Positions 2,876 to 18,838 of a stretch of 45,662 nt of DNA are shown piece after piece. Position numbers and translations under genes: made by a program. Source of the DNA: Candidatus Woesearchaeota archaeon (GTDB lineage Archaea; Nanobdellota; Nanobdellia; SCGC-AAA011-G17; ARS1403); the NCBI GenBank assembly GCA_018302505.1, contig JAGVZL010000052.1, positions 1 through 45,662 of the forward strand, in the 5' to 3' direction. The notes under the pieces are model-generated. The model made no database searches, had not been told where the DNA came from, and saw only the letters and a list, made by a program, of their open reading frames with translations. Within the stretch, counting starts at the first letter, position 1. Every line of letters begins with the position of its first letter.

Positions 2876-4531
2876 ATGAATATAGAATCTATAATTATTA
2901 ATTTATTAAAGAAACAAACAAAATTAAAAGAGATAACTTTAGAAAATCCCCCAGATCCAAAGTTAGGAGATTATGCCTTCCCATGTTTTCAATTGTCTAA
3001 AACATCAAAGAAATCACCGGTAGAAATAGCTAAATCCTTAGAATCTATTAAATTACCAAAAGAGATAGAGAAAGTAAAGGCAATAGGTCCATATCTAAAT
3101 TTTTACATAAACCCAAACCGACTAGCAGAATCAGTAATTAAACAAATCTTAAAAGAAAAAAATAAGTACGGAGCTAAAAAGAATAAGGAAAAAATAATAG
3201 TCGAGTACGTTTCACCCAATACAAATAAATCCCTGCATCTAGGTCACGTCAGAAACGGTCTATTAGGAACAGCATTGTCCAATATTCTACAATCTCAAGG
3301 TTATAATGTGATTAAAGCTTCTCTAAATAATGATAGAGGTACTGGAATGTCAGAAGCAATGTTAGGGTACTTAATGTATCATAAGGGAGAAAACCCCAAA
3401 ACAAAACCCGATCATTTTGTAGCTCAATGCTATGTGGATTATAAACAATCAGAAACTGAAGAAACAAAAGCTAAAGTACAAAAATTAACCCTAGATTGGG
3501 AAAATAATAATAAAGAAGTTAGGGAATTATGGAGCAAACTAACAAAATGGGTTTACCAAGGCTACAAAGAGACATATAAAAACCTAGGTATCGAATTTGA
3601 CAAAGAGTATTACGAATCTAAGATATACACAAAAGGAAAAGAAATTGTTCATCAAGGTCTAAAAAAGGGGATTTTCAAAAAGAAAGACGGGGTAATAATC
3701 GCCAAATTAGAAAAATATAATCTTCCTGATAAGATCTTAATAAAATCTGATGGTACTTCTCTCTACATGACTCAGGATTTATATTTAGCTAAATTAAAAG
3801 AACAGGATTTTAAGATAGATAGATCTATTTACGTAGTAGCTTCAGAACAGGATTTGCATTTTAAGCAATTATTCCAAATATTAGAACTATTAGATTTTAA
3901 AGTGTCAAAAAAATGTTATCATTTAAGTTATGGTTTAGTTAATCTACATTCAGGGAGAATGAAATCCAGGGAAGGAAATGTAATAGATGCAGATGACATA
4001 ATAGAAGAAGTTACGTCTTTAGCAAGAGAAGAATTAAAAAAGAGAGAAGAAAAAGACATAGAAAAGAAAGCAAGAATAATAGGACTGGCAGCATTAAAAT
4101 TCTTCATGCTTAAATTTGATAATGCTACTTCATTTGTTTATGATCCCCAACAATCCTTAAGTTTTGAAGGCGAAACAGGCCCATATTGTCAATACACTTA
4201 CGCAAGAATAAAATCTATTTTAAGGAAATGCAAGACCAAAGTGCCGGTTAAAATTACTGATTTAACGACGGGAGAAGAAAAGAATATTATAATGTTGCTT
4301 TACAAATACCCCAAAGTTCTTGAATATTCAGCTGAAAACTATAAACCACATTTACTTTCAAGATTTATCCTAGATTTATGTCAGGCCTTTAACGAATTTT
4401 ACCATCAACATCAGATATTAAAAGCAGAAAAAGACTTAAAGGTATCAAGGTTAAATCTAATAATCGCAACATCAATAATAATTGAGAATAGCTTAAAACT
4501 ATTAGGAATAGAAACACTGGAATCTATGTAA
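2876..4531 (+). CDS. argS: Arginine--tRNA ligase
   Basis: 551 aa. It has the HIGH-type motif SPNTNKSLHLGHVRN, an MKSREG (KMSK-like) motif, and a C-terminal anticodon-binding region typical of ArgRS. Confidence 0.9.
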   Translation: MNIESIIINLLKKQTKLKEITLENPPDPKLGDYAFPCFQLSKTSKKSPVEIAKSLESIKLPKEIEKVKAIGPYLNFYINPNRLAESVIKQILKEKNKYGAKKNKEKIIVEYVSPNTNKSLHLGHVRNGLLGTALSNILQSQGYNVIKASLNNDRGTGMSEAMLGYLMYHKGENPKTKPDHFVAQCYVDYKQSETEETKAKVQKLTLDWENNNKEVRELWSKLTKWVYQGYKETYKNLGIEFDKEYYESKIYTKGKEIVHQGLKKGIFKKKDGVIIAKLEKYNLPDKILIKSDGTSLYMTQDLYLAKLKEQDFKIDRSIYVVASEQDLHFKQLFQILELLDFKVSKKCYHLSYGLVNLHSGRMKSREGNVIDADDIIEEVTSLAREELKKREEKDIEKKARIIGLAALKFFMLKFDNATSFVYDPQQSLSFEGETGPYCQYTYARIKSILRKCKTKVPVKITDLTTGEEKNIIMLLYKYPKVLEYSAENYKPHLLSRFILDLCQAFNEFYHQHQILKAEKDLKVSRLNLIIATSIIIENSLKLLGIETLESM

Positions 4532-4545
4532 ATCACTATAATAAA

Positions 4546-4555
4546 CTTTAAAAAC
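4546..4555 (+). promoter_or_regulatory. TATA-box-like element
   Basis: CTTTAAAAAC ends 22 nt before ATG 4577. Confidence 0.45.
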
Positions 4556-4576
4556 CCCCCATTCTTAAAAAATATC

Positions 4577-5029
4577 ATGCCAATTGTAGGTTTTAATTTT
4601 GACAAGTTAAGTGTAGAAAGGAAAGCCCCATTACAGAAAGGAATGAAAGCCACCCATAATATTACAATAGATGATATTAAGGAAGAGCCTCTTAATTTAG
4701 GTGAGAAAACTAAAAAACAAGGGTTAAAGTTTTCTTTTGAATATATTGTGGACTATCAGCCAAAGATTGGTGAAGTTCTGATTAAAGGGCATATCCTCTA
4801 TCTTGATGATGAAAAGAAGATAAAAGAAATCGTATCCAAATGGAAAAAAGAAAAGAAGATGGATGCGGATATCACAGCACATTTAATCAACACGGCGATA
4901 ATAAAATCCACGATAAAAGCATTAACTTTAGCTCAGGATTTGAATTTGCCTCCTCATCTACCTATTCCAACAGTTGTTAGAAGACAAGAAACAAAAATCT
5001 CAGATAACGCTAAAGATTATATAGGTTAA
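4577..5029 (+). CDS. Hypothetical protein
   Basis: 150-aa ORF with backbone-like Lys/Ile-rich composition and a promoter box at the canonical spacing. I did not recognise a family with confidence. Confidence 0.4.
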   Translation: MPIVGFNFDKLSVERKAPLQKGMKATHNITIDDIKEEPLNLGEKTKKQGLKFSFEYIVDYQPKIGEVLIKGHILYLDDEKKIKEIVSKWKKEKKMDADITAHLINTAIIKSTIKALTLAQDLNLPPHLPIPTVVRRQETKISDNAKDYIG

Positions 5030-5053
5030 TTCTAAAATAAAAAAGAAGGAATC

Positions 5054-5224
5054 TTAAAGATCCCTAGAAGATACTGTTTTTCTGTTATTTGCTTTTGCTC
5101 TTTGAGCTGCTTTCCTTATCAAATTAGCAACTTCATCGTTAAGTGCATTTGCAAAATCACCAGAGACGTTGCAACCTTCTGCATGGTCCTTTATTTTCGA
5201 TCTTACAACAACCAAATCTGTCAT
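5054..5224 (-). CDS. Small histone-fold-like protein (DUF1931-like), absent from the ORF track
   Basis: My own translation of the minus strand gives MTDLVVVRSKIKDHAEGCNVSGDFANALNDEVANLIRKAAQRAKANNRKTVSSRDL (56 aa). A strong Shine-Dalgarno GAGGTGA sits 4 nt upstream of the ATG. The pattern SGDF..aLnxxVxxlIxkAxxRAkaNxRKTv resembles single histone-fold proteins. Confidence 0.5.
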   Translation of the reverse strand: MTDLVVVRSKIKDHAEGCNVSGDFANALNDEVANLIRKAAQRAKANNRKTVSSRDL

Positions 5225-5373
5225 TATTTCACCTCGCTATGTTATTTTAATAATCTTGGTTTAACTATTTTTCTTTAAATAATTTGTGGTTTACAGCCTC
5301 CAAATAGGCAAAATACTAGGGTTTAAGGATATTAGGAAACCCATAAGGAAATTAGGATATTCGTGAACAATAA

Positions 5374-6018
<645 letters not shown>

Positions 6019-6033
6019 GCCCAAATAGCTCTC

Positions 6034-6040
6034 TTTTTTT
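6034..6040 (+). terminator. Oligo-T tract downstream of ORF ending at 6018
   Basis: A T7 run lies 16 nt after the stop codon. Archaeal termination commonly uses oligo-T. Confidence 0.25.
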
Positions 6041-6080
6041 AATAAAATAACTTTTATTATGAGGAAATAACCAAGAATAC

Positions 6081-6191
6081 CACTCACTTTTGTTATTTAT
6101 CAGAACTATTCACTATATAATCTCTCTTCATACATTCTTTTTTATTATTAGTGCCCCTATATTATCACTCACTTTGTCATTTATCACGAAC
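6081..6191. repeat. Pair of about 26-bp direct repeats (iteron-like)
   Basis: CACTCACTTTTGTTATTTATCAGAAC (6081-6106) and CACTCACTTTGTCATTTATCACGAAC (6166-6191) are near-identical. Confidence 0.8.
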
Positions 6192-6290
6192 TTTTAAAGA
6201 ATTACTATTCGACGAACTTTGTAGGAACAATCTATAGAAACTATAGAACGTTTATAGGATAATTCTTTCAAAGGCCAAGTATTAAATACC

Positions 6291-6369
6291 TTCCTACGGA
6301 CGTCGTAGACGTCTACGACACTTCCTACGACAGTCGTCGACAAGTCGTCGACATATATTTTACCGTCGA
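6291..6369. repeat. CpG-rich repeat/palindrome cluster (candidate operator or origin element)
   Basis: TTCCTACG(G)AC occurs twice (6291-6301, 6322-6331). A perfect 18-bp palindrome GTCGTAGACGTCTACGAC spans 6302-6319. GTCGTCGAC occurs twice (6333-6341, 6344-6352), and CGTCGA occurs at 6364-6369. The cluster lies just upstream of TATA ATATATAAAT (6373-6382). Confidence 0.85.
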
Positions 6370-6403
6370 AAAATATATAAATAAGAAAGTATCTATAAAG
6401 AAC

Positions 6404-6982
6404 ATGTTAAAGTGGTTGATAGGAAATCATGTAAAAAAAGAAATTAAAGATCATTTGAATAATTTACATCTTCACCTAGCACATTCTTTCTCAAATATCA
6501 AAGACGATATCTCAAATATCCATGTACATCTTAAAAATAAAGACCAAAAATTCTTAGAATTAGAACATAAAATTCACTTATTGGAAACAAAATTATTTTA
6601 TGCCTTACAACCTAGGGAAGCTCCAAAACAAATAGCAGAATCAGAAGAAGATGAAGTGGAACTCAAAGAAGAAGCAGTGAGGGTGGATCATGAATTAACC
6701 CATACACAACAAACTATCCTAGCAGCCTTATATCAACTACAATCTCAATTTAACAGTCCCATCTCTTTCAAATCGTTAGCTAAATACCTATACCCCGCAA
6801 AGGACTATACTGCTGTAAGAACCACATTATCAGAATATTTAGACCTCTTAACCGAATATAATCTAGTTTCAAAGAAGAAAGTTGGTAGGGAAACTGTGGC
6901 AAAAACAACGAAAAAAGGTCAAAAGTTAGCCAAATCAATCTTAAAAAATAAAAATAACAAATTAAATATTGAAATAGGTTAA
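6404..6982 (+). CDS. Coiled-coil + winged-helix DNA-binding protein
   Basis: 192 aa. The N-terminus is heptad-like (HLNNLHLHLAHSFSNIKDDISNIHVHLKNKDQKFLELEHKIHLLETKL), followed by an acidic linker and a C-terminal wHTH-like segment (TQQTILAALYQLQ...ISFKSLAKYL...LSEYLDLLTEYNLVSKKKVGRE). A TATA box ends 22 nt upstream. Confidence 0.5.
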   Translation: MLKWLIGNHVKKEIKDHLNNLHLHLAHSFSNIKDDISNIHVHLKNKDQKFLELEHKIHLLETKLFYALQPREAPKQIAESEEDEVELKEEAVRVDHELTHTQQTILAALYQLQSQFNSPISFKSLAKYLYPAKDYTAVRTTLSEYLDLLTEYNLVSKKKVGRETVAKTTKKGQKLAKSILKNKNNKLNIEIG

Positions 6983-7029
6983 CTTATTTCAATTAATTTT
7001 ATATACTTGTTTCACTTTCCATTAAAATA

Positions 7030-7266
7030 ATGACGGAAACTTTGGAAGAAGTGGCGATAAATGATGACGGCTATCCAAGAGTATCTGAAATCTGTTTAAA
7101 TCATATTTTAGGGCTTAATCAACTTTCTCAAGAACAACTTCAAAGACTAATGGAAATAGGAGATCATGATAAATATAAATTCTGTTCAGGCTGCAAACGG
7201 GATTGGGGGAATCAATATTGCCAAGATTATAACCCTTATCTCTTAATAAAAGGAGTTCACACATAA
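7030..7266 (+). CDS. Hypothetical small protein
   Basis: 78-aa ORF with non-backbone composition. It contains CSGC and a further Cys. I recognised no family. Confidence 0.3.
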   Translation: MTETLEEVAINDDGYPRVSEICLNHILGLNQLSQEQLQRLMEIGDHDKYKFCSGCKRDWGNQYCQDYNPYLLIKGVHT

Positions 7267-7316
7267 AAATTCTAAGCAATTCTTAAAATATTTATTCAAC
7301 CAAAAAATTTAAAAAT

Positions 7317-7354
7317 AAGTGTATATTTGTTAGTTAAGTGTATATTTGTTAGTT
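7317..7354. repeat. Perfect 19-bp tandem duplication AAGTGTATATTTGTTAGTT x2
   Basis: 7317-7335 and 7336-7354 are identical. The repeat ends 2 nt before ATG 7357, and each copy carries a TATA-like TATATTT. Confidence 0.95.
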
Positions 7355-7356
7355 AA

Positions 7357-7740
7357 ATGGTAGAAAAAATAAACCATCAAGATATTTCCTTAGATAATGT
7401 GGCTGTTTTGACAGATATGGGCATTAATCAAAGACAAGCCCTAGAAACATTAGCTGTTTTTTCAGATTTAAGGATTGCAATGGCAGTAGTAGGGACTTAT
7501 AAACATCCTCCAACAAAATTGGGTCAAACTTTTGGAGATTATGATCATTATCTTACCCAAATTATATATGCAATATCAGGTATATCTCCCCCTTCTGATG
7601 AGCTTACTTTATATGAAGATGAAGTTGCAGAGCGGACTACAATGGTTTCAGAAAGAGAATTACATCAAGATCGTTATAGGGACAGACCTTGGAATTCTAG
7701 CCATTTTTATGAGCATTTAGCATCCAGATTAGGAGAATAA
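7357..7740 (+). CDS. Hypothetical protein (possible UBA-like N-terminal segment)
   Basis: 127 aa. DISLDNVAVLTDMGINQRQALETLAVFSDLRIAMAVV weakly resembles a UBA-type three-helix motif. Composition is non-backbone (Arg/Asp/His/Tyr-rich). Confidence 0.35.
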   Translation: MVEKINHQDISLDNVAVLTDMGINQRQALETLAVFSDLRIAMAVVGTYKHPPTKLGQTFGDYDHYLTQIIYAISGISPPSDELTLYEDEVAERTTMVSERELHQDRYRDRPWNSSHFYEHLASRLGE

Positions 7741-7941
7741 AACTTTTAAGCAAAAACTAAAACTTTTATTTTAATTAAAATCATTCTAAAAATGTAATAC
7801 TCTTCCTAATCTCTTAGGTAAAATGTCCCAAAACATGCCTAAAACGTAATATTTCCACCAAGTATTACATTCAAATTCAAATTTTGCCACTACAAGGCTT
7901 GTACATAAACTATATAAACTAATTCGTCTAATGCTAATTAG

Positions 7942-8784
7942 ATGAAAAATGATGAGGTGATAGAAAAAGTAGAAAGAGAATTAAAATTGTTAGGGCTTAG
8001 TCCTAGAACCATTAGCTCTTATCAACTATATCTTAAAGAACTATTCAAATTTACTGGAAAACTTCATTCAAGAATTCAGTTTAAAGATATTAAGCAATTC
8101 TTAGAATATTTAACTTTAGAAAAAAACTATTCCGGCTCAAGTTTAAACATCGTGAGATCAGCAATTTCTTTCTATTATGAGAAAATGTTAGAAAAATATC
8201 CTATTAGTAAGATAAGGGTTAAGAAAGTAGGCAAAAAACTTCCAGGAGTCTTAACAAAACAAGAAGTAAAAAAAATAATTGATGTAGCCGATAGCCTAAG
8301 AGATAAATTAATAGTTCAAATAATGTATTCCTGTGGTTTAAGGGTTTCCGAAGCTACAAACCTAAAATTAGAAGACTTAGATACCTCTAGAATGGTTGGC
8401 ATTATTAGGTCTGGAAAAGGAAACAAAGATAGGGCAATTCAATTAAACACACCATTAGTAAACAATATTGAAGCTTATCTCAAAACTAAAAAACTACCTT
8501 CAAAATTCATATTTTCAAAAACAAATGGAACACCTTACACTACTAGATCTTTTCAGATTATCATAAAAAAACTAGCAGAAAAAGCAGGAATAACAAAAAG
8601 GGTCCATTCCCATATATTTAGACATGCTTTTGGAACTCATTTAGTTGAAAAAGGAATAAACATTGTAAGGGTGCAGGGAATGATGGGTCATTCTAATTTG
8701 GAAACAACAAAAACTTATGTTAATCTATCTGCTGAGCAATTTAAAGGAGTTGGAAATTTATTGGATGATTTGGAAGAAGAATGA
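7942..8784 (+). CDS. Tyrosine recombinase / integrase (XerA/XerC-D family)
   Basis: 280 aa. Catalytic signature: GLRVSEATNL (Arg), KGNKDRAI (Lys), HSHIFRHAFGTHL (His-x-x-Arg), GHSNLETTKTYVNL (His...Tyr). Confidence 0.85.
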   Translation: MKNDEVIEKVERELKLLGLSPRTISSYQLYLKELFKFTGKLHSRIQFKDIKQFLEYLTLEKNYSGSSLNIVRSAISFYYEKMLEKYPISKIRVKKVGKKLPGVLTKQEVKKIIDVADSLRDKLIVQIMYSCGLRVSEATNLKLEDLDTSRMVGIIRSGKGNKDRAIQLNTPLVNNIEAYLKTKKLPSKFIFSKTNGTPYTTRSFQIIIKKLAEKAGITKRVHSHIFRHAFGTHLVEKGINIVRVQGMMGHSNLETTKTYVNLSAEQFKGVGNLLDDLEEE

Positions 8785-9323
8785 AAGACACAATATCTGT
8801 CAAGACAATAGAAATGGTGCAAGACATATTTCAACAAGGAGATGAAAGATATAACGATTATCAAAGTGCAATAGATGTTGCAGAATTCATAGATAATAAT
8901 GCAATAATAGTAGAGAAAAAAGAAATAGATGCTGTAAAAATTCCTAAAAAAGAAATAGACGAAATAAATGGACCTCAGCAATATTACAAAGCACTGGCAA
9001 AAAGAGTCTCAGATAAGAAAGGTTACAGATTTATAGGCTATGAAAAAAATTTCCCTGGCGGAATAGTTGATGCTCTAGCAGAAGATACTTCCGGAAATAA
9101 AATTGCCATAGAATGCTGTTCATGCAGGATTTCCAAGGCAATAAGCTACTTAGAAGAAGAAAACACTATTTTATGGATATTATCTATTTCAGATAAACCA
9201 ATAGAAGTTACAAAATACCCCCTATTTATAATCAAAAGAGGCCCAAATTGGGATGCTGTCTATAAAAGATATAATGGCTGGAGAATAAATTTAATTAAAA
9301 ACGTTAAAAGTCCAAGGGATTAA
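8781..9323 (+). CDS. Hypothetical protein coupled to the recombinase gene
   Basis: 180 aa. Its start overlaps the recombinase stop (ATGA at 8781-8784). The C-terminal half (GIVDALAED..NKIAIECCS) could be a degenerate PD-(D/E)xK fold, but I cannot support that firmly. Confidence 0.4.
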   Translation: MKDTISVKTIEMVQDIFQQGDERYNDYQSAIDVAEFIDNNAIIVEKKEIDAVKIPKKEIDEINGPQQYYKALAKRVSDKKGYRFIGYEKNFPGGIVDALAEDTSGNKIAIECCSCRISKAISYLEEENTILWILSISDKPIEVTKYPLFIIKRGPNWDAVYKRYNGWRINLIKNVKSPRD

Positions 9324-9598
9324 CTTTTTTTGTAAATATTGTCATGATGGTCATAATCAGTAAAATAAATGAAATCTTTTTGTTTATCATAAGAAAACAC
9401 AAGCACAAAAGATTTTTTAATATGTACACTTTTAAATAATTGTAATGGATTCCTCAGGTTCTTATAATGCTCAGGATCATCACAATTAATAATTTCTTTA
9501 ATTTTATTCAGAATCTGCCCATAAGCATCTTTATCTTTTTTTGAAATTTTCTCCAATGTTTTTTCTAGATTTTTGCTTAATTTATAAGGACGAGCCAT
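9320..9598 (-). CDS. RelE/ParE-superfamily toxin (type II TA)
   Basis: 92 aa. The pattern LEKISKKDKDAY..ILNKIKEI...HYKNL..PLQLFKSVHIKKSFVLVFSYD....IYFTDYDHHDNIYK matches RelE/StbE-like toxins. It lies 1 nt downstream of a small antitoxin-like ORF. Confidence 0.6.
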   Translation of the reverse strand: MARPYKLSKNLEKTLEKISKKDKDAYGQILNKIKEIINCDDPEHYKNLRNPLQLFKSVHIKKSFVLVFSYDKQKDFIYFTDYDHHDNIYKKS

Positions 9599-9599
9599 T

Positions 9600-9845
9600 T
9601 TAACCCGACTCTATTTTCTTTCTCAATTCTTCTATAGATCTAAAAGTTTCACCATAACCTTCTTTCTCAATTCTCTTTATTTTTTCAATATATTCAGGCC
9701 TTAACTCAGGTTCTAGAAGTTCTTCTCCATAGCCCATAGTTACTAGTTCTATTGCTTCTGACTTGTCTTTCAAATTATGCTTTGCTTTTACTATGTTTAA
9801 TATATGATTTGCATTCTTGCTAATGTTTATTATTGCCTGTACCAT
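9600..9845 (-). CDS. Putative antitoxin (DUF2683-like archaeal family)
   Basis: 81 aa. MVQAIINISKNANHILNIVKAKHNLKDKSEAIELV...LEPELRPEYIEKIK resembles the archaeal DUF2683 / RHH-like antitoxin pattern. It sits immediately upstream of the RelE-like ORF. Confidence 0.5.
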   Translation of the reverse strand: MVQAIINISKNANHILNIVKAKHNLKDKSEAIELVTMGYGEELLEPELRPEYIEKIKRIEKEGYGETFRSIEELRKKIESG

Positions 9846-9881
9846 ATTAACATGATATTAATATAATATTTATAAAGTTTT

Positions 9882-10082
9882 CTACACACTATCATAACCA
9901 CATAAAACAATATCTGGTTTTTTAATACCTTTAAAATATTTGCAGATTGAGACATTTTTAACAGCGCATTTATGTTTATTCGTATTTTCTTCTTCATTCC
10001 AGGGGCATTTATCCTGTTTCCAGGAAACATCTTTTTGTGTTATTAGATCAATATCCATGTTTGCACCTTTCAGTTGTTTCAT
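9882..10082 (-). CDS. Small Cys-containing hypothetical protein
   Basis: 66 aa with 4 Cys (KCPW, HKCAV, SICKY, VLCGY). It is on the same strand as the TA pair and upstream of it. Confidence 0.3.
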   Translation of the reverse strand: MKQLKGANMDIDLITQKDVSWKQDKCPWNEEENTNKHKCAVKNVSICKYFKGIKKPDIVLCGYDSV

Positions 10083-10144
10083 AGAATTGTCCTAAATTAA
10101 CAAATCTTAAAAACTTTCTTGTCTTATAAAATTCTGATGTTAAA

Positions 10145-10300
10145 ATGAATATGGTAGATGTAATATCTTTCGTAGTTTTGTGGATTATAGCCAGTTTGAT
10201 CTGGGCCATATGGTTGGATGGAGTTTATACACCGATAGCAGGAGTAATTACCGCAGGTATAGCTTCTGGCGGATTTAAATTAATATTCCATAATAAATAA
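10145..10300 (+). CDS. Possible small membrane protein (not in ORF track)
   Basis: My own translation gives MNMVDVISFVVLWIIASLIWAIWLDGVYTPIAGVITAGIASGGFKLIFHNK (51 aa, two hydrophobic segments). It ends 1 nt before the MazG-like ATG. Promoter spacing is not canonical, so support is weak. Confidence 0.25.
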   Translation: MNMVDVISFVVLWIIASLIWAIWLDGVYTPIAGVITAGIASGGFKLIFHNK

Positions 10301-10301
10301 A

Positions 10302-10661
10302 ATGGACAAAAAAACAAATCTCCACGAATTAAAAGAAAAAATAAAGAAATTTTGTGAAGAAAGAGACTGGGATCAATATCACAATGCAAAAGAGTTATCT
10401 ATCGGGATTATTACAGAGGCTTCTGAATTATTGGAACATTTCAGATTCAAATCAGAAAAAGAAATAGAAGAAATGTTCAAAAACGAAAAGAGAGAACAAA
10501 TTTCAGAGGAATTAATAGACACTCTTTACTTTATCTTGAGATTCGCACAAAAATACAATATAGATTTAACAATCGAATTAAATAAAAAGATGGAAAAGAA
10601 TCATAAAAAATATCCAATAGACAAAATCAAGGGAAGCAATAAAAAATATACTGAAATATGA
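10302..10661 (+). CDS. mazG: MazG-like nucleoside-triphosphate pyrophosphohydrolase (all-alpha NTP-PPase, DCTPP1-like)
   Basis: 119 aa. It carries the typical ERDWDQYHNAKELSIGIITEASELLEHF and EELIDTLYFILRFAQKYNIDL..ELNKKMEKNHKKYP metal-binding helices. The TATA-like TTTAAATTAA ends 19 nt upstream. Confidence 0.8.
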   Translation: MDKKTNLHELKEKIKKFCEERDWDQYHNAKELSIGIITEASELLEHFRFKSEKEIEEMFKNEKREQISEELIDTLYFILRFAQKYNIDLTIELNKKMEKNHKKYPIDKIKGSNKKYTEI

Positions 10662-12535
10662 GACTCTACGAAGACGCAGTTAAAGCATTCAAAGAAGATG
10701 TAACACAAAATAAGATAGCAGATAAGATTTCAAATAGATATCAGGATTATTATAAAAAAAAAGCAAGTATTTCAGAAGTTAGATCTTGGACTAATTCTTT
10801 AAATTTTGTAAAAAACGTCTTAGAATACGCACCCATTGAAGAAAATAAGATTATTGTTGAATATGAATTACCTTACTCGGAAAAAAGAATAGATGTTTTA
10901 ATATTTGGAAAAGATGCACAAGGAAATGAAAATATTGTAGTTATAGAACTAAAACAATGGTCAAATGAAAATGTAGATGATTCTGAGCATGAAGGTAATG
11001 TAAGGGTAGATTACGGAAAAGCTAAGGTGGAGTTGCCTCATCCATCTTTACAGGTAGAAGGGTATTGCTGGCATCTAAGGGATTTCTTAACTGTTTTTGA
11101 TGAAAAACCACAAATCTTACTAAATGCTTGTATTTATTGTCATAATTATAATAAAGGAGAAAATGAAGTTCTTTATTTGCCCAAATTCAAAAAAGACCTT
11201 GAAACTTATCCGGTCTTCTCAAAACAAGAAATGAAAGACCTTGGAGAATTTCTTAAAACAAAATTATCCTCAGACTCAGGCTTAGAAGTTTTTGGAAGAT
11301 TCACCCACAGCATTTTACGACCTTCTAAAAAATTAATGGAACATACAGGAGAAATGATTAATGAACAAAAAATATTCAACTTAATTGATGAACAAATTAC
11401 TTCCTATAATGCAATTATGCATCAAGCTAAAAATTTAGCTCAATCAAAAGAAAAATCCGTTATAATAATTAAAGGCGGACCTGGAACCGGAAAATCTGTA
11501 ATAGCCTTAGAAGTAATGGGGGAGTTATTAAGAAGAGAAATTAGTGTTATCCATGCAACAGGTTCTTCAGCATTTACAAATACTTTAAGAAAAATTCTCG
11601 GACCCAGATGTGCAAACCAATTTAAGTTCTTCAATAGTTTTATTGATAAATCAAAATTTAAAGAAAATGAATTCGATGTTTTAATTTGCGATGAAGCACA
11701 TAGAATTAGAAAAACAAGCGATAGTATGTATACACAAAAACATCTTAGAACAGGAGAACCGCAAATAAATGAACTTATTAGGGTAGCTAAATTAATTATC
11801 TTTTTTATAGATGAACACCAAGTTGTTAGACCTAATGAACTCGGAAGTGTTAATTTAATAAAAAAAGCGACAGAAACTTTTGATGCTAAAATTTATGAAA
11901 TGCCGGAATTAAAAACACAGTTTAGATGTGGTGGCTCAGGAAATTATTTAGAAAAAATTGAAAAAGTATTAAGGATCTACGAAGAAGGTGCAGACATCGA
12001 ACTCGATGAAGAAACAAAAATGGAATTCAAAATTGTAGATTCTCCTCACGAATTAAAAAGATTAATTGACCAAAAGAATAGAGAAAAGAAGAATTCAGCA
12101 AGAATGGTTGCAGGGTTCTGTTGGCCATGGAGTAAACCGAATAGGGATGGTTCTTTAGTTAATGATGTTAAAATAAATGATTTTGAAATGCCTTGGGAGA
12201 ATAAAGATGAATTTTGGAGATGGGCAACCGAAGATTCCGGAATGGATCAAGTTGGGACAGTCTACACTTCTCAAGGATTTGAATTTGATTATATTGGAGT
12301 TATTTTCGGAAATGATCTAGTCTGGAATAAAGAAACAAAAAGCTGGTACGCAAAACCTGAAAATTCTTGTGATAGTGCTGCTAAGAGGGGAAATGATGAA
12401 TTCGCAAAACATCTAAAAAACGTTTATAGAGTTTTATTAACAAGAGCCCACAAAGGAGTCTTTGTTTATTTCATTGACGAAACTACTAAAGAATATTTTA
12501 AAGAGAATGCTAAGAAGCTAGGATTTAAAGTCTAA
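10658..12535 (+). CDS. DUF2075-type protein: N-terminal PD-(D/E)xK-like nuclease + Schlafen-group-3-type SF1 helicase/ATPase
   Basis: 625 aa. The N-terminus has EKRIDVLIFGKD...VVIELKQW (D...ExK). Walker A is GGPGTGKS and Walker B is LICDEAHR. The C-terminal VYTSQGFEFDYIGVIFG and YRVLLTRAHKGVFVYF are typical of DUF2075. The start overlaps the MazG stop (ATGA 10658-10661). Confidence 0.8.
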   Translation: MRLYEDAVKAFKEDVTQNKIADKISNRYQDYYKKKASISEVRSWTNSLNFVKNVLEYAPIEENKIIVEYELPYSEKRIDVLIFGKDAQGNENIVVIELKQWSNENVDDSEHEGNVRVDYGKAKVELPHPSLQVEGYCWHLRDFLTVFDEKPQILLNACIYCHNYNKGENEVLYLPKFKKDLETYPVFSKQEMKDLGEFLKTKLSSDSGLEVFGRFTHSILRPSKKLMEHTGEMINEQKIFNLIDEQITSYNAIMHQAKNLAQSKEKSVIIIKGGPGTGKSVIALEVMGELLRREISVIHATGSSAFTNTLRKILGPRCANQFKFFNSFIDKSKFKENEFDVLICDEAHRIRKTSDSMYTQKHLRTGEPQINELIRVAKLIIFFIDEHQVVRPNELGSVNLIKKATETFDAKIYEMPELKTQFRCGGSGNYLEKIEKVLRIYEEGADIELDEETKMEFKIVDSPHELKRLIDQKNREKKNSARMVAGFCWPWSKPNRDGSLVNDVKINDFEMPWENKDEFWRWATEDSGMDQVGTVYTSQGFEFDYIGVIFGNDLVWNKETKSWYAKPENSCDSAAKRGNDEFAKHLKNVYRVLLTRAHKGVFVYFIDETTKEYFKENAKKLGFKV

Positions 12536-13189
12536 CCAGTTCCAAAAACTATCTTTACCAATTATAACATGGTCTAAAACTAATATTCCTAATATTTCAC
12601 CGGTTTCTATGATTTTTTTTGTGATTTCTATATCCTCTTCTGATGGTGCAGGATCTCCGGATGGATGATTATGTACAAGCATTATACTAAAAGAATTTTC
12701 TTTAATAGCAGCCTTAAAAACTTCTCTTGGATGTATCAAAGAAGCATTCAAAGTACCAATACAAATCCTATGAACTTTATTAACACAATTTTTAGTATCT
12801 AAGCAAACTACATACAAATGCTCTTCATTATAGTCTTTAACTCTATTAACAAACATATCAAAAATATCTTTAGCACTTTTAATCTCTTTTTTATTAAACC
12901 CACCATTAACTAATGTTCCATATCTTTTGCATAATTGAATTAAGCTTAAAATCTTTAAAGCAGCTACTTTATCATTATTGCATTCTTTTTTAAGAACTTC
13001 AAAGCCAATATCATAAATCTTATTCAAGTTATATTTTTTTAATAATTTATTAGTAAATTCTAAAATACTGGCATCTTTAACTTTTCCAAGAACAATAGCC
13101 AATAATTCATAATCGCTTAAAACCCCAGCACCATATTTAATTAACCTCTCACTAGGCCTGTCATAAAAAGCTATTTCTTTAATCTTCAT
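12518..13189 (-). CDS. radC: RadC-like JAB/MPN domain protein
   Basis: 223 aa. It has the JAMM motif MLVHNHPSGDPAPSEEDIEITKK, the N-terminal RPSERLIKYGAGVLSDYELLAIVLG HhH-like region, and a TATA box at canonical spacing. Confidence 0.85.
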   Translation of the reverse strand: MKIKEIAFYDRPSERLIKYGAGVLSDYELLAIVLGKVKDASILEFTNKLLKKYNLNKIYDIGFEVLKKECNNDKVAALKILSLIQLCKRYGTLVNGGFNKKEIKSAKDIFDMFVNRVKDYNEEHLYVVCLDTKNCVNKVHRICIGTLNASLIHPREVFKAAIKENSFSIMLVHNHPSGDPAPSEEDIEITKKIIETGEILGILVLDHVIIGKDSFWNWLDFKS

Positions 13190-13278
13190 TTATCTAAACT
13201 TAAATTTTTGCTTTAAAAAGATTAATAGAATTTAAACTATATTTTAGAATTAACAAAAGTAACACCATGGAGACTTCT

Positions 13279-13677
13279 TTATTCAGAAAAACTCAATTTC
13301 CAATCAGTTTCTCTTTGAGTAATATCTTCCAAATGTTTAGGGTCTATTCCAATTCTATAATCCCCACTATTTCCAAAAAATCTAACATTTTTTCTATCTA
13401 TATCTACTTCCGCCCTGCCAGCCCCACTCATCCTATATTCAATAGCGGGTTTTCCAAGCCACGCCCCTCTTCTAAAGTTCATTGATGGGATAGAATCTCC
13501 ACTACTCCTCCCCCTAATCCATTCGCAATCATAAACAATATCATGTTCTATTAAAATCCTATGGAGTATTTGGCCATGCATTGTTCCTTTATCTCCAAAC
13601 AATAAATCAGGAGTACCATTAACATATACCTGAACTATTTTATATTCTCCAGATCGAACAGGCCATAAAACTCTCAT
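13279..13677 (-). CDS. Hypothetical protein (non-backbone composition)
   Basis: 132-aa ORF that is Arg/Gly/Asp-rich. I recognised no family. I preferred it over the overlapping plus-strand ORF 13267..13485, which is low-complexity. Confidence 0.4.
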   Translation of the reverse strand: MRVLWPVRSGEYKIVQVYVNGTPDLLFGDKGTMHGQILHRILIEHDIVYDCEWIRGRSSGDSIPSMNFRRGAWLGKPAIEYRMSGAGRAEVDIDRKNVRFFGNSGDYRIGIDPKHLEDITQRETDWKLSFSE

Positions 13678-13908
13678 TCTAGAGGGTGGTAAATTATGGC
13701 ATCTAAAGATAATTCTAAAACCTCTAAAGCATAAGAGATAGAAGAAATAGCAGAAGAGGCTGGGAAATTACTCAAGGAAGCCAAAAGATTATTCTTTCTT
13801 TGATTTCTTACCAACTTTAGAAGTTCTTTCTAACAAAGAGATAAGTTTTAAATCAATTTTTCTGTTAGAACCTATATTTTTAATAAGCAGATTGAATTGA
13901 TATTTACT

Positions 13909-14275
13909 ATGAAAACTCTCTCACTAAAACAGCCTTACGCAGAATTAATTTTACAAGGAAAGAAAAAAATAGAACTAAGAACTTGGAATACTAAATTTAG
14001 AGGAGAATTCTATATTCACGCTTCATTAACTGCTGATAAAAAAAGCAATGGAAAGATTCAGCTTTAAAGAATTGCCTTTAGGATATATCTTAGGAAAAGC
14101 AACTTTAGTTGATGTTAAAAAATATGAAACTGAATGACAGCATAAAAAAGACAAAGATTTGCATCTAGCTTCATCCTCCTGGGGAAACTATGGTTTTATC
14201 TTAAAAAATCCAAAAAGAATTGCTCCAATAAAAACAAAAGGAAAATTAAATTTCTGGGAATATAAGATTCAATAA
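13909..14275 (+). pseudogene. ASCH-domain gene disrupted by a frameshift and an in-frame TGA
   Basis: MKTLSLKQPYAELILQGKKKIELRTWNTKFRGEFYIHAS (frame 1) breaks at an A7 run (14038-14044). Frame 2 continues AMERFSFKELPLGYILGKATLVDVKKYETE, then TGA (14135-14137), then QHKKDKDLHLASSSWGNYGFILKNPKRIAPIKTKGKLNFWEYKIQ. Together these reconstruct a full ASCH fold. Confidence 0.7.
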
Positions 14276-14329
14276 AGTATATTTTAGAAAGTAAGAAATT
14301 TTAAATATCATTATCTATTAATTTAAATA

Positions 14330-14998
14330 ATGCAAGGATACACATCTAATGAAGCGTACTCTTTATTCCTGAATTATATTTTTCTTTCGAGAGAAGATTT
14401 GGGAGCACAGTCTGCAGATCCAGAAGAGAATCCAGAAACTGCAGAAAAAGATAACTTTCTAAATTCTTATTTAGCAGCCACATTAACTTCAAGATTAAGT
14501 GCAAAAGTAAAACCAGCAAGAATAGAAGAGATTTCAACAATAGTTGGTTCAGATGAAGGACCAAGATTAAGAATTTTAAGATTACAAAGAGAAGCAGATC
14601 AAGGTTTAATTTTTCATGGGGTTTTTACAGAAACACCTAAAGATTATGAAACAGTAGGAATAGCATATAGTTCGGCAGCAGGAATTTGTAATAAACTACA
14701 AGATCCAACAGGAGAAATATTTGCATATATTGATGAAAATCTGGATTTTTGTATAGGGTTGCTCCATCATTTAAGTATTGCATATTTAGCAGCCCATGGA
14801 GTTTCAGAAGCACAATTGCATAGAATGACGTTAGCACAAACACCAGATGAATCATTAGACTCTTTTCTAGATTATTATCATATATATCTAAACGAAACAG
14901 ATCAAGAAAAAAGAAATCTATTAGTTCAACATCTCCAGGAATCAAGAGAAGTAGCACAACAATTAAATCCTAAACTTATTTTTCCTATTATAGAATAA
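14330..14998 (+). CDS. Hypothetical protein (non-backbone composition)
   Basis: 222-aa ORF that is Ala/Leu/Glu/Gln-rich. I recognised no family. Confidence 0.4.
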   Translation: MQGYTSNEAYSLFLNYIFLSREDLGAQSADPEENPETAEKDNFLNSYLAATLTSRLSAKVKPARIEEISTIVGSDEGPRLRILRLQREADQGLIFHGVFTETPKDYETVGIAYSSAAGICNKLQDPTGEIFAYIDENLDFCIGLLHHLSIAYLAAHGVSEAQLHRMTLAQTPDESLDSFLDYYHIYLNETDQEKRNLLVQHLQESREVAQQLNPKLIFPIIE

Positions 14999-15015
14999 TT
15001 TCAAAACACCGCAAT

Positions 15016-15186
15016 TCACATCTTCTTTTTAACATTTCTCGGCACAGGCACTTTCTTAATAGAATTTACATTAACTTTTTTTAAATTACTAGTTCTTGAA
15101 TAGAAGTCAGCTAAATAAACCTCTCTAGAAAAAACTGGAAGTTCTTTTCCACTAGGTTGTCCTTCATAAGGTATTAATTCATCCAT
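15016..15186 (-). CDS. Possible small protein (not in ORF track)
   Basis: My own translation gives MDELIPYEGQPSGKELPVFSREVYLADFYSRTSNLKKVNVNSIKKVPVPRNVKKKM (56 aa). It lies 49 nt downstream of ORF 15236..15841 on the same strand. Confidence 0.25.
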   Translation of the reverse strand: MDELIPYEGQPSGKELPVFSREVYLADFYSRTSNLKKVNVNSIKKVPVPRNVKKKM

Positions 15187-15235
15187 TTTATCTTTATCAC
15201 AGAACTTTTTTTATTTTATTAACAAATTTAGCCTT

Positions 15236-15841
15236 TTAAATTTTACTTTTTAAGAAATCGCACGCTTTATTCCCTAAGTAAACTCCGAATTCATCATATA
15301 TCCTTCCACCTAAATAAATCCTCTTTCCCGAAATCTCCCCGGGGGAAATAGTTAGACTATCCCAATCCACAGGAACTTGTAAAAATCTCAAAACATCAGG
15401 AGGAACGTAAAATAATCTTCCGCTTTCTCCGTCGCGAAGATACAAATCAGACCTATTATCAACTTTTCCAATTAAGCTGCCATTGGTTGCTCCACTATTT
15501 ATAACCCTCTCTCCTCTAGTCATCATAAATATCTGTCCTCTTAATTTTTCAACATCATTTCTAAACATTAAAACAGCGCCAACAGAATCAAAAGTGCTTG
15601 TCCTATAATGGATTCTTTCAAAAGGAGTGTCTTCAAAGCCCGGAACAAAATTTCTAAAGCAATAATCCAATACTTCATCGTCTAAAGCTTCTCCTTCTAT
15701 TAATCTTAAAGCAATATCATTCTCTAATTCTCCTCTTTCTTGATTTAAATCCCAATGGGTCATATCATCAAAAGAATTACCCTTATCAGCCAGATACAAT
15801 TCCATGGCGATCTCTATTTTTTCAGCTAAATTTTCTTCCAT
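15236..15841 (-). CDS. Hypothetical protein (non-backbone composition)
   Basis: 201-aa ORF with an acidic N-terminal half and a Gly/Arg-rich C-terminal half. A TATA-like box lies about 24 nt upstream of the ATG. I recognised no family. Confidence 0.45.
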   Translation of the reverse strand: MEENLAEKIEIAMELYLADKGNSFDDMTHWDLNQERGELENDIALRLIEGEALDDEVLDYCFRNFVPGFEDTPFERIHYRTSTFDSVGAVLMFRNDVEKLRGQIFMMTRGERVINSGATNGSLIGKVDNRSDLYLRDGESGRLFYVPPDVLRFLQVPVDWDSLTISPGEISGKRIYLGGRIYDEFGVYLGNKACDFLKSKI

Positions 15842-15947
15842 AAGATAAACCCATTTTTTGCAATTTAAAAAAACTATTAAAAAACAAACTATATTTTAGA
15901 AAATCTCACATTAGTGAGTCTCATAATCAAATAGATACTTAATAAAT

Positions 15948-16172
15948 CTATAATAAACTTCTTACAAAATGTCCAATTTCTTGATAGTAGTAAATAGCAA
16001 GTATACAAGGGGGCAGGTATTTGGCGCCATAAAACAGGGCTTCAGAAGCATAAGAAATCCCAACTTCCAAATCCGGTCTGGGTCTTCCTCTAATCGCAAC
16101 ATTAGCTTCATGCCACTTTTTATCTCCAGAAATGGGCACTAAGAATCTCACAAGTTCATCTAAATTATCCAT
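15948..16172 (-). CDS. Hypothetical small protein (ORF track starts at TTG 16193; ATG 16172 preferred)
   Basis: On the minus strand, TTTAAAAAT (16193-16201) ends 21 nt before ATG 16172, which fits the window-wide promoter spacing. The protein begins MDNLDELVRFLVPISGDKKWHEAN. Confidence 0.3.
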   Translation of the reverse strand: MDNLDELVRFLVPISGDKKWHEANVAIRGRPRPDLEVGISYASEALFYGAKYLPPCILAIYYYQEIGHFVRSLL

Positions 16173-16215
16173 ACTGCAACGATGTGTTTCCAATTTTTAA
16201 ATCTTTTTAGACAGT

Positions 16216-16452
16216 CTATCCTAACATACATCTTTCTCTACTAGGAAATTTTCCAGTAACTACAGTTTCATAAGCCCATCTTAAAATTCTATAACCATCA
16301 CTCAAATAATTTCTTAACTCTACCTTATCTTCATCAGCAATTAATACAGCACCAATAACATAAACCGGAGAGATAATTGTAGCTAATGTAGCAGCACTCC
16401 CCCAAACAAGTCTTTTTTTCCTGTCTAAATTAATTTCAACTAAGTCATTCAT
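16216..16452 (-). CDS. Single-pass membrane miniprotein
   Basis: 78 aa with one hydrophobic helix, WGSAATLATIISPVYVIGAVLIA. Its start overlaps the stop of the upstream ORF (ATGAATGA). Confidence 0.35.
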   Translation of the reverse strand: MNDLVEINLDRKKRLVWGSAATLATIISPVYVIGAVLIADEDKVELRNYLSDGYRILRWAYETVVTGKFPSRERCMLG

Positions 16453-16654
16453 TTTCTAAAGAAGGGTCTCTAAAAGCAAGTTCTTCTAATCCATTTAATA
16501 TACCCCTATTTATATCTCCCATATATCCTAAAAATTCTCTATAATCCCCTCTCATTATAGCTCTGCCAGCACCGACTCCTAAAAATAAAGGATAAGCAAT
16601 AATCATCCCGCTAACACAAAGTCCTGTTCTTAATTTATCTCCTAAGTCGCTCAT
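16445..16654 (-). CDS. Single-pass membrane miniprotein
   Basis: 69 aa with one hydrophobic helix, GLCVSGMIIAYPLFLGVGAG. A Shine-Dalgarno GGAGGAT sits 5 nt upstream of the ATG. Confidence 0.35.
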   Translation of the reverse strand: MSDLGDKLRTGLCVSGMIIAYPLFLGVGAGRAIMRGDYREFLGYMGDINRGILNGLEELAFRDPSLENE

Positions 16655-16776
16655 TTTAATCCTCCAGACAAGTTTGATTAAATCATTAAGGAAAATAGTA
16701 TTTTAAAAACTTTCTAAAAATAACCATTTATCACAAATACCCAACTAATTTTTAAACTTAACTTTTAGAAAAATTC

Positions 16777-16833
16777 TATACACACGATGTGTATTTAAAA
16801 CATAAGATCTAAATAGTAATTTATACACACGAT
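16777..16833. promoter_or_regulatory. Candidate operator repeats upstream of the doc operon
   Basis: The 12-bp direct repeat TATACACACGAT occurs at 16777-16788 and 16822-16833. The first copy is embedded in the inverted repeat TACACA-CGA-TGTGTA (16779-16793). The second copy ends 5 nt before ATG 16838. Confidence 0.45.
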
Positions 16834-16837
16834 ATTT

Positions 16838-17176
16838 ATGAATCTAACAAAAAAAGATATTGTAGCAATAAACGAGAAATTTGCTTCAGGTCACTTTGAG
16901 AACGAATCAAGCTTAAATTTTGCATTAAAGCATTCAAAACACTCAATTGCCTGGACAAAGCAGTTAGCTTATTTAATTAGGGCCGTCTTAATAGACCACG
17001 TTTTTGTTGATGCCAATAAAAGAACTTCATATACATTATTGCTAACCTTTGTAGAGTTAAATGATTGGAATATTGATGAAAAACAAGCAGTAGAGATAAT
17101 AAAGAGTTTAGTATTAAAAAAAGAAAAAAGCATAACTAACATTCAAAGGAGGGTAGAAAATGCCATCACAAAGTGA
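16838..17176 (+). CDS. doc: Doc (death-on-curing) family toxin, Fic fold
   Basis: 112 aa. It has the Doc-type motif HVFVDANKRTS, i.e. HxFx(D/N)(A/G)NKR. Confidence 0.75.
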   Translation: MNLTKKDIVAINEKFASGHFENESSLNFALKHSKHSIAWTKQLAYLIRAVLIDHVFVDANKRTSYTLLLTFVELNDWNIDEKQAVEIIKSLVLKKEKSITNIQRRVENAITK

Positions 17177-17396
17177 GTTTCTAAAAAATGCACTAAAAAT
17201 AATAAAAGAGAAACCTTCAGGATTCAAAGCATTAGAAGAGTTTGAAAAAACAGGAAGAACAATCTTAAAAACAAGATTAAATTTCACAATAGACAGAGAA
17301 ACAGCCAGAAAATTTAGGGATTACTGCAGGAAACATAAGCTAAACATGTCTAAAGAAGTTGAGAATTTAATTAAAAAGAGAATTAATTTAAACTAA
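17160..17396 (+). CDS. Ribbon-helix-helix-like putative antitoxin
   Basis: 78 aa. RLNFTIDRETARKFRDYCRKHKLNMSKEVENLIKK has a CopG/RHH-like pattern. It overlaps the doc 3' end by 17 nt. Confidence 0.5.
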   Translation: MPSQSEFLKNALKIIKEKPSGFKALEEFEKTGRTILKTRLNFTIDRETARKFRDYCRKHKLNMSKEVENLIKKRINLN

Positions 17397-17411
17397 AAAA
17401 TTATATTTTCA

Positions 17412-17660
17412 CTAACGAAGTTTATATCTTAACACTTCCTCTCTAAAAGGATGATACCCGCCCCTTCCATCATCATATAGATAAGTAGTTCTTATTTCCC
17501 TGATTCCTCTAGATATTCTTTCTACAGGATCACTCTCTCCAATCCCAACCATCCAGCCGTCAATACTAAACCATCTAACATCATTATACCTTCCATTACA
17601 AGTCTTTTCTCTTTCAGGTTCAAAGAGCCATGGATAAAAAACAACTTCGCTTCCAGCCAT
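17412..17660 (-). CDS. Hypothetical protein (non-backbone composition)
   Basis: 82-aa ORF that is Arg/Gly/Glu/Trp-rich. I recognised no family. Confidence 0.35.
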   Translation of the reverse strand: MAGSEVVFYPWLFEPEREKTCNGRYNDVRWFSIDGWMVGIGESDPVERISRGIREIRTTYLYDDGRGGYHPFREEVLRYKLR

Positions 17661-17711
17661 AGACTAATCTAAATAAGTAAATCTTTTATAATTTTCCAAA
17701 AGAAAAAATGG

Positions 17712-17909
17712 CTATTTTGTAGCCATCTTTATAGCCCACAACGCAGATAGACCTACTAAAACATAAACAAGTCTTTCCAGCCAGGCTACGGATCCTAGGA
17801 TAACGTTCACCAAGTTAAAATTGAAAGCACCAACTAATCCCCAATTAACTCCTCCAACAATAACAAGAACTAAAGTTACCCGGTCCAATACGCTTTTTTT
17901 ATCAGCCAT
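17712..17909 (-). CDS. DUF378-family small membrane protein
   Basis: 65 aa. VIVGGVNWGLVGAFNFNLV...LVYVLVGLSALW matches the DUF378 pattern. A Shine-Dalgarno GAGGTGAT sits upstream. Confidence 0.65.
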   Translation of the reverse strand: MADKKSVLDRVTLVLVIVGGVNWGLVGAFNFNLVNVILGSVAWLERLVYVLVGLSALWAIKMATK

Positions 17910-17970
17910 GGAATCACCTCTATAAAATCTATATTTTAGCTATATATAAAATTAACTGGAAAAATAAGTT

Positions 17971-18827: not shown

Positions 18828-18838
18828 ATTTCAATACT

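Follow-up and report, generated by a model that had tools for sequence, protein, structure and literature searches.

A phased array of CpG-rich half-sites as the probable operator of a winged-helix gene in Candidatus Woesearchaeota

Dimeric winged-helix regulators of the MarR type and their archaeal counterparts (MepR, OhrR, BldR and Lrs14-type proteins) regulate their own genes through palindromic operators, with the winged-helix gene lying directly behind a dyad site at its own promoter. In a second group of systems (TubR-tubC of pBtoxis, ParR-parC of plasmid R1 and the AspA site of Sulfolobus pNOB8), multiple phased repeats of ~10-12 bp are located immediately upstream of the gene for the protein that binds them, while the RepA proteins of iteron plasmids use an inverted repeat as a dimer operator and direct repeats as monomer iterons. 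In archaea, the upstream activating sites of Ptr2 (Methanocaldococcus) and GvpE (haloarchaea) abut the transcription factor B recognition element (BRE) and TATA box on their upstream side. For DPANN archaea, which cannot be cultivated in isolation, there is to our knowledge almost no information on how genes are regulated. Here we describe a CpG-rich cluster of palindromic and repeated words at positions 6291-6369 of contig JAGVZL010000052.1 from a Candidatus Woesearchaeota archaeon (the whole stretch of 45,662 nt that was analysed is referred to as the window). The cluster is located in the 385-bp spacer between two genes, A and B, directly in front of the promoter of gene B, which encodes a winged-helix protein. 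It shares features with each of the described systems, and its sequence anatomy and conservation indicate that it is probably a multi-site upstream operator array by means of which B, perhaps together with its distant paralogue A, would control the promoter of its own gene.

The window has a G+C content of 31% and is poor in CpG (observed/expected ratio, O/E, of 0.51). Against this background the cluster contains 12 CpG in 79 bp, as compared to at most 5 in any other 80-bp stretch, and the Poisson expectation for such a dense stretch anywhere in the window is ~3e-5. The cluster reads TTCCTACGGAC GTCGTAGACGTCTACGAC AC TTCCTACGAC A GTCGTCGAC AA GTCGTCGAC ATATATTTTAC CGTCGA, and not one letter differs in contigs assembled from four public metagenome runs (groundwater and soil) that are independent of each other. 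An earlier, sequence-only reading of the window had reported a CpG-rich cluster in CpG-poor DNA that contains a perfect 18-bp palindrome at 6302-6319, the repeats TTCCTACGGAC (6291-6301) and TTCCTACGAC (6322-6331), two copies of GTCGTCGAC and a further CGTCGA (6364-6369), and that abuts a TATA box. All of these elements are present where it had placed them, the TATA-like AAATATATAAATAA occupying 6371-6384, ~30 nt 5' of the ATG at 6404. The cluster resolves into six to seven copies of one 7-bp half-site, C(T/G)ACGAC (reverse complement GTCGTAG / GTCGTCG), and together with its promoter and gene it comprises the following features:

6291-6301 (word from 6294), plus strand: unit 1, TTCCTACGGAC, the half-site CTACG(G)AC split by one extra base
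6302-6319, no strand: units 2 (inverted, GTCGTAG, 6302) and 3 (direct, CTACGAC, 6313), forming the perfect 18-bp palindrome GTCGTAGAC-GTCTACGAC
6322-6331, plus strand: unit 4, TTCCTACGAC, with CTACGAC at 6325, 12 bp after the start of unit 3
6333-6341, plus strand: unit 5, GTCGTCGAC, with CGTCGAC at 6335, one mismatch from CGACGAC
6344-6352, plus strand: unit 6, GTCGTCGAC, with CGTCGAC at 6346, a tandem 11-bp copy of unit 5 (AGTCGTCGACA twice)
6363-6369, plus strand: partial unit, CCGTCGA, with the word CGTCGAA from 6364 fused to the BRE-like CGAAAAA
6370-6384, plus strand: BRE/TATA of gene B, AAAATATATAAATAA, ~30 nt upstream of the ATG
6404-6982, plus strand: gene B, 192 aa, proposed binder of the array

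The direct copies start at 6313, 6325, 6335 and 6346, i.e. at spacings of 12, 10 and 11 bp or about one helical turn, and therefore lie on one face of the helix. Units 1 and 2 together form a 15-bp quasi-palindrome, CTACGGACGTCGTAG, and in related loci (designated here by L numbers) unit 1 has either the form seen in the window or its exact reverse complement, CTACGACGTCCGTAG. The block TCCTACGACAGTCG(A/T)CGACA in the region of unit 4 is the most conserved stretch of the spacer. Relatives carry GTCGACGAC at the position of unit 5, and the number of distal units resembling units 5 and 6 is variable, ranging from one to four per relative. The partial unit is present in the window, L025 and L015, takes the form GTCGAAAAC in L026 and L029, and is absent from L027, L028 and L014; it is flanked in the window by mirrored AT arms, ATATATTTT and AAAATATAT (6353-6378). 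These arms place an inverted copy opposite the TATA box of gene B (ATATATTTT-ACCGTCGA-AAAATATAT), an arrangement that is kept only in the closest relatives and that may represent either a divergent promoter or a component of the operator. The BRE/TATA itself is near-invariant in 10 of 11 aligned relatives, L008 being the exception. TATA-like words in the window peak at -30 from the start codons of its genes, and since the TATA box of gene B is located at this modal distance, its mRNA is expected to be leaderless or to have a very short leader.

The half-site is confined to the array within the 45 kb. Exact matches to CKACGAC number five in 45.6 kb, all within 6302-6350 (0.52 expected; 0 of 100 shuffles), and GTCGTCGAC at up to one mismatch is found seven times in the window versus 0.43 times expected (0 of 100 shuffles). 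Treated as an independent 10-mer, TTCCTACGAC at up to two mismatches shows no enrichment in the window, and it was rejected as a separate motif, as it equals the CTACGAC half-site plus context.

To compare the array among relatives, the DNA upstream of gene B was collected from 15 Woesearchaeota/Nanoarchaeota loci, leaving out one longer, differently placed relative that has no array (P0022 / L033). In all 15 loci a CpG-word cluster, formed by an array of C[TG]ACGAC or a lineage variant, is located directly upstream of a near-invariant BRE/TATA; the array ends 15-25 bp upstream of this element, which is positioned at ~-30 of the B ATG, and this holds even for relatives in which B is only ~30% identical. 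A MAFFT alignment of ten A-B spacers (270-420 bp) contains only three conserved blocks: the ~55-bp array, the BRE/TATA and one box after gene A. The array block reads TCCTACG..CGTCGTAGACG(T/C)C(T/G)ACGACACTTCCTACGACAGTCG(A/T)CGACA and the box after A reads CCCTCACTTT..TTTATC.GAACT, whereas the other 200-300 bp of the spacer have diverged even between the window and the 75%-identical L025. Across these loci, the 2.7 kb of DNA upstream of B contain 42 copies of the word C[TG]ACGAC and the remaining 88.7 kb contain seven, a ~200-fold enrichment. The sequence-only reading had allowed that its motifs might prove common elsewhere or that the cluster might be missing from relatives; instead, the word is rare outside the array in both the window and the related loci, and no relative with the same genes lacks the cluster.

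The CpG-densest 80 bp also lie immediately 5' of B in seven of the eight relatives' loci that were checked. In L027 the highest CpG density belongs to an additional, more distal copy of the array, and the proximal copy ranks second; the A-B spacer of this locus contains two arrays (1740-1830 and 1890-1960) with 15 and 10 CpG per 80 bp, i.e. duplication of the array occurs. The exact 18-bp palindrome is present in L003, L008, L025 and L014, and 77.8% of the cells of its dyad are kept in 11 relatives, with near-invariant core pairs. The half-site GTCTACGAC is retained where B is ~30% identical (L008 and L031); L008 keeps the whole palindrome, which is bordered there by TTCGTCGAAC and GTTCGACGAAC, and L031 and L032 have four or five direct GTCTACGAC-like units in its place. 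Direct units are spaced by 10-12 or 19-21 bp in all lineages. In the two most distant family members sampled the architecture is the same and the word differs along with the predicted recognition helix of B: L034/35 has the word CGTCA(G/T) and helix RSM in place of RTT, and L036 has TTCGAC(A/G)AAC (TTCGACAAAC) and helix RST..SSY. This pattern looks like that of a sequence-specific, cooperatively bound protein site that is evolving with its reader.

Two readings of the cluster that invoke its nucleotide sequence per se can be weighed against these comparisons. The cluster contains SalI (GTCGAC), AatII (GACGTC) and TaqI (TCGA) words in a genome in which TCGA and ACGT are both depleted (O/E of 0.38 and 0.29, respectively), as might be expected of a restriction or methylation target cluster, and its perfect palindrome could extrude a hairpin, in either DNA or a structured RNA. 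However, distant relatives keep the architecture with other words (CGTCA or TTCGACAAAC), and no DNA methyltransferase or endonuclease gene was found among the ORFs (open reading frames) scanned, the only methylase-like ORF being a THUMP-type RNA methylase. As for a hairpin, the A:T pair at palindrome position 6 (pair 52-59) is broken without compensation in 7 of 11 relatives, no Rfam match was obtained, and folding is no better than that of shuffles (z = -0.55). Of all the explanations considered we regard these as the most improbable.

The protein encoded by gene B was modelled with AlphaFold2 on 14 homologues (mean predicted local distance difference test score, pLDDT, of 79.8). The model consists of a long N-terminal helix (residues 2-68), an acidic disordered linker (71-94), a MarR-like winged helix (~95-168) and a basic C-terminal helix (170-191); pLDDT exceeds 90 over residues 100-180, and the winged helix has the MarR-like H-H-H-strand-strand wing topology. 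Foldseek searches of the PDB matched it to AF1382 (E = 3e-4) and to the MepR-DNA complex (1.6e-3), with target-normalised TM scores of 0.56-0.78, and further matches were obtained to SSV1 F-93, Sso10a-2 and BldR and, lower down, to AspA (4rs8) and TubR (6aht). The C-terminal half of B thus resembles MarR-family structures, but the protein lacks the MarR-type dimerisation/ligand domain and has instead the 67-residue N-terminal helix and acidic linker. It has no Pfam or NCBIfam assignment: the MarR family (PF01047 / PF12802 and relatives) did not reach threshold, DUF6293_C (20.2 bits) and HTH_45 (15.7 bits) matched below it, and Sso10a_fam reached 17.1 of the 60 bits required. When 1.84 billion cluster representatives were searched with a profile, 282 matched at E ≤ 1e-3 and 175 did so at the stricter E ≤ 1e-10; the family, which has no Pfam model, comprises at least 175 clusters at 50% identity, and nearly all members are 170-230 aa long and are matched end to end. 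The most conserved segment of the family is the predicted recognition helix, K133-x-Y135-x-x-x-R139-T-T-L-S143-E-Y145. A search of the literature found neither the 18-mer nor, in work on DPANN winged-helix regulators, any description of the gene B family.

Together these data mark the array as a strongly conserved, most likely cis-regulatory element of a known kind that belongs to an uncharacterised, widespread DPANN protein family. The sites are located at the promoter of a gene for a putative regulator, they are conserved above the surrounding spacer, and their dyad symmetry fits a dimeric binder. We infer that the binder is B, as opposed to A or a third factor, and propose that it would act as follows. 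B would dimerise or oligomerise via its long N-terminal helix, and the dimer would set two winged-helix domains on the 18-bp palindrome, which would serve as the nucleation site. More B molecules would then cooperatively fill the phased direct repeats on the same face of the DNA, and the resulting nucleoprotein complex would extend to the BRE/TATA and govern the access of TBP and TFB to the leaderless promoter of B, producing feedback. We think negative feedback more likely than positive, given that in about half of the lineages the BRE and the last unit run into each other. In this arrangement the locus departs from the single palindrome of MarR-type systems, as it contains six to seven half-sites of mixed orientation and helical phasing that are mostly upstream of the BRE/TATA. 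Of the functions that the sequence-only reading had offered for the cluster, the multi-site operator is the one favoured by the comparative data, whereas recombinase, origin, and methylation or restriction sites are not.

Several observations weigh against this interpretation. Six metatranscriptome runs come from the same studies as the metagenomes, and in the four that were searched the locus was not represented, all matches being to low-complexity (AAGC)n sequence. Gene A is always encoded next door, and its product could bind the array alone or with B. Sites that lie mostly upstream of the BRE/TATA are more typical of archaeal activators than of repressors, and for this reason the preference for negative feedback is tentative; like the Ptr2 and GvpE sites the array abuts the BRE/TATA on its upstream side, but those sites have two half-sites and are read by the Lrp/AsnC and GvpE families, whereas here an array is paired with an unrelated protein. 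The co-variation of recognition helix and word comes from two distant lineages only. Finally, there is a third exact copy of TCGTCGACA at 19761-19769 (0.02 expected by chance), 18 nt before a Shine-Dalgarno-led ORF of 49 aa with basic character (19787-19936), which hints at a candidate second target of the same factor.

If the operator interpretation is correct, the locus provides a ready-made, testable protein-DNA pair, i.e. a 192-aa protein of an unannotated family and a defined 60-bp region with the half-site C(T/G)ACGAC, conserved over deep divergence.

The possibility that the array is read by A, or by an unlinked factor, bears directly on this pairing, as it would replace feedback with a regulatory cascade. 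Gene A and the elements around it are as follows:

5374-6018, plus strand: gene A, distant paralogue of gene B with the same architecture
5384-5412 and 5625-5656 in the window, and 4500-4700 (minus strand) in L003: sites of the gene A words
Gene A words by lineage: TTAAGCAAGCA in the window clade; TTCAACAAACA in L025, L026 and L022; ATCAACAA in L008 and L031; TTCGACAGC in L036
6079-6196 (6079-6111 and 6164-6196), plus strand: second conserved box, (A/C)CACTCACTTT..ATTTATCA.GAACT, two copies 85 bp apart just after gene A

BLASTP detects no similarity between A and B. A profile-profile comparison with hhalign aligns them over 114 columns with 95.5% probability (E = 1.5e-8), and given their shared architecture the two genes are therefore old paralogues. 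A homologous winged helix-turn-helix protein is consequently always encoded immediately upstream of the array, and in L036 the A-array word TTCGACAGC is similar to TTCGAC(A/G)AAC, which stands in front of B; both observations speak for A as a reader. In other lineages, however, the words associated with A (TTAAGCA, TTCAACA and ATCAACA) are unrelated to CTACGAC. We favour B over A because the helix and array of B are both conserved while the recognition-helix region of A and the words of A both vary between lineages, and because close relatives such as the window and L025 share identical B arrays but differ in their A words. A cascade of this kind is accordingly a doubtful alternative. The data fit a scheme in which each paralogue would read its own array, as the promoter of gene A is surrounded by repeat words that differ from those in front of B.

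The gene order around the cluster is LonB, a 170-aa ORF, arginyl-tRNA synthetase (ArgRS), a 150-aa ORF, a 56-aa histone-fold-like ORF on the opposite strand, gene A, the spacer with the cluster, gene B, two small ORFs and a tyrosine recombinase. L003 is an almost identical contig that is labelled Nanoarchaeota archaeon, while gene B homologues are labelled Candidatus Woesearchaeota. The order LonB/ArgRS, ORF, (small ORF), A, spacer, B is shared by L008, L022, L025, L026, L027, L031 and L036, in which B is 28-75% identical to that of the window, and the segment from ArgRS through the 150-aa ORF and the (56-aa histone-fold) ORF to A and B (2876-6982) is syntenic across deep Woese-/Nanoarchaeota lineages. 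The region 3' of B is variable and contains small ORFs and Fic, PIN/toxin-antitoxin (TA) or PHP genes; in five lineages, among them L022, L008, L034/35 and L036, a Xer-type gene is again present 1-2 kb beyond B. An accessory or mobile island had been proposed for 5225-19700, but A and B are not its cargo, as they belong to the conserved chromosomal backbone beside ArgRS. The synteny across lineages therefore places the start of the variable accessory region behind gene B (~6983) and not at 5225.

This synteny, in which LonB, ArgRS, the DUF and histone-like ORFs, A and B are followed by XerA 1-2 kb further on across deep lineages, is one of several features that would suit a site whose role is mainly structural, i.e. 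centromere-like, chromatin-nucleating or a domain boundary, with promoter control as a by-product and A and B building a higher-order complex. The array resembles parC and tubC in having phased 10-12-bp direct repeats directly upstream of the promoter of the putative binder, TubR (6aht) and AspA (4rs8) are among the fold matches of B, the cooperative coating of the array described for TubR, ParR and AspA is the binding mode proposed here for B, and the site words of A are also found inside the A coding sequence. The locus nevertheless differs from those systems, as it is chromosomal and syntenic with ArgRS, gives no evidence for segregation and has no partner NTPase gene: the neighbours are small ORFs, XerA, TA genes and Fic, and no ParA/ParM/TubZ-type gene lies nearby in the window or in any relative. 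Furthermore, the fold matches are generic for MarR-like winged helices (E ~1e-2), and nothing sets the array apart from an ordinary autoregulatory operator. We therefore think a mainly structural role unlikely. A bolder version would combine A, B, the CpG array, the CTCACTTT boxes after A and the words of A in promoter and linker DNA into a conserved chromosome-maintenance locus of Woese-/Nanoarchaeota, in which coiled-coil winged-helix proteins would use the palindrome as a nucleation point and extend from it as polymers over the phased repeats to form a centromere-like, boundary or dif-control complex beside the XerA gene and the variable cassettes. We give this version a small chance of being correct; if true, it would represent a new chromosome-organising module beside XerA.

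The tyrosine recombinase gene at 7942 suggests a further role for the palindrome, as the dif or att site of this XerA-type enzyme. The protein scores 222.6 bits against the NCBIfam XerA equivalog cut-off of 220 and its gene is located 1.6 kb downstream of the cluster, a recombinase gene recurs 1-2 kb 3' of B in the lineages named above, and the gene content 3' of B is variable. The palindrome recalls archaeal dif in being palindromic, in a locus that also has a XerA-type gene. Archaeal dif consists of two imperfect inverted arms of 11 bp on either side of a 6-bp spacer, is rich in AT, and does not lie next to xerA (Cortez et al. 2010, PMC2958812). The cluster does not have this 11-6-11 geometry: the two halves of the palindrome adjoin directly, a reading as 6+6+6 does not lengthen the arms, and no 11-6-11 inverted repeat spans it. 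The best match to the dif consensus (13-14/28) equals the background of the window, no second copy of the palindrome or of CKACGAC is present elsewhere in the 45.6 kb as would suit an att site, and the variable DNA starts after gene B and not at the cluster. A dif or att function is therefore very improbable. A better candidate for a Xer site, judged from sequence, lies where xerA begins, in a highly conserved stretch in which the 60 nt before the gene (window 7880-7948; L022 5665-5730) are almost identical although the B proteins are 47% identical. A weak dif-like 11-6-11 repeat, AATTCGTCTAA-TGCTAA-TTAGATGAAAA (8/11), overlaps the xerA start codon in this stretch of the window and L022. Both tyrosine recombinases of the window (7942-8784 and 18000-18827) exceed the XerA equivalog cut-off, with 222.6 and 235.5 bits, respectively, and both are therefore only candidates for the housekeeping XerA.

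The use of one word as both an inverted and a direct repeat beside a winged-helix gene follows the logic of iteron replicons, and raises the question of whether the spacer could be a replication origin, with the CpG words acting as initiator boxes similar to origin recognition boxes or iterons around an AT-rich unwinding region. One further feature is relevant here:

6208-6227, minus strand: possible distal inverted partial copy, TTCGACGAAC plus TTTGTAGGAA, complementary to TTCCTACAAA, 63 bp upstream of the array

This copy faces the array across 63 AT-rich bp, and gene A has weak matches of the DnaD_N / HTH_36 type. However, neither the inverted copy nor the AT-rich gap is kept even in the 75%-identical L025, the array is anchored to the TATA box and not to an AT-rich tract, and no Orc1/Cdc6 gene was found among the ORFs of the window (45 kb) or beside the locus of any relative. 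Compared to iteron plasmids, the units are short (7-11 bp versus 17-22 bp), and there are no replication genes, no conserved AT-rich unwinding element and no location on a plasmid or virus. The palindrome was not found in 2.9 million viral contigs, on which ground a viral or plasmid origin for it was rejected, and a collection of species-representative genomes yielded 13 matches, 11 of which are chance matches in GC-rich bacteria. We consider an origin in this spacer highly unlikely.

The repeats around gene A form a separate set. The gene A of the window lacks 65 nt at 5412/5413 as compared to L003 and to the contigs of the four public runs; the missing segment contains one 11-bp leader repeat and the gene A ATG with its first nine codons, and as a result the gene has no canonical start before the GTG at 5593. 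The probable cause of this gap is either a collapse of the repeat during assembly or a deletion variant within it. The word that is repeated at the promoter/leader of gene A is also repeated in the DNA that encodes the A linker, after an invariant GGAAATGAAGGGGTC (GNEGV), in every lineage (L003, L025, L022, L026, L027, L028, L008, L031 and L036). The (AAGC)8 tract, which encodes the peptide SKQASKQ, accordingly looks like more than a slippage-prone repeat, and may be an array of DNA-level sites that dictates the linker peptide.

The box (A/C)CTCTCACTTT, which in close relatives continues into ..ATTTATCA.GAACT, is present in one to four copies downstream of gene A in all lineages examined, with four in L036, and CTCTCACTTTT boxes were seen in this locus; the second box after gene A may be a site of A or of another factor. 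In L026, the ArgRS codons for TVVDADD (597-614) are spelled GTCGTAGACGCCGACGAC, a sequence near-identical to the operator of that genome, while five other relatives use AT-rich codons at this position; this word is either a chance occurrence or an auxiliary intragenic site.

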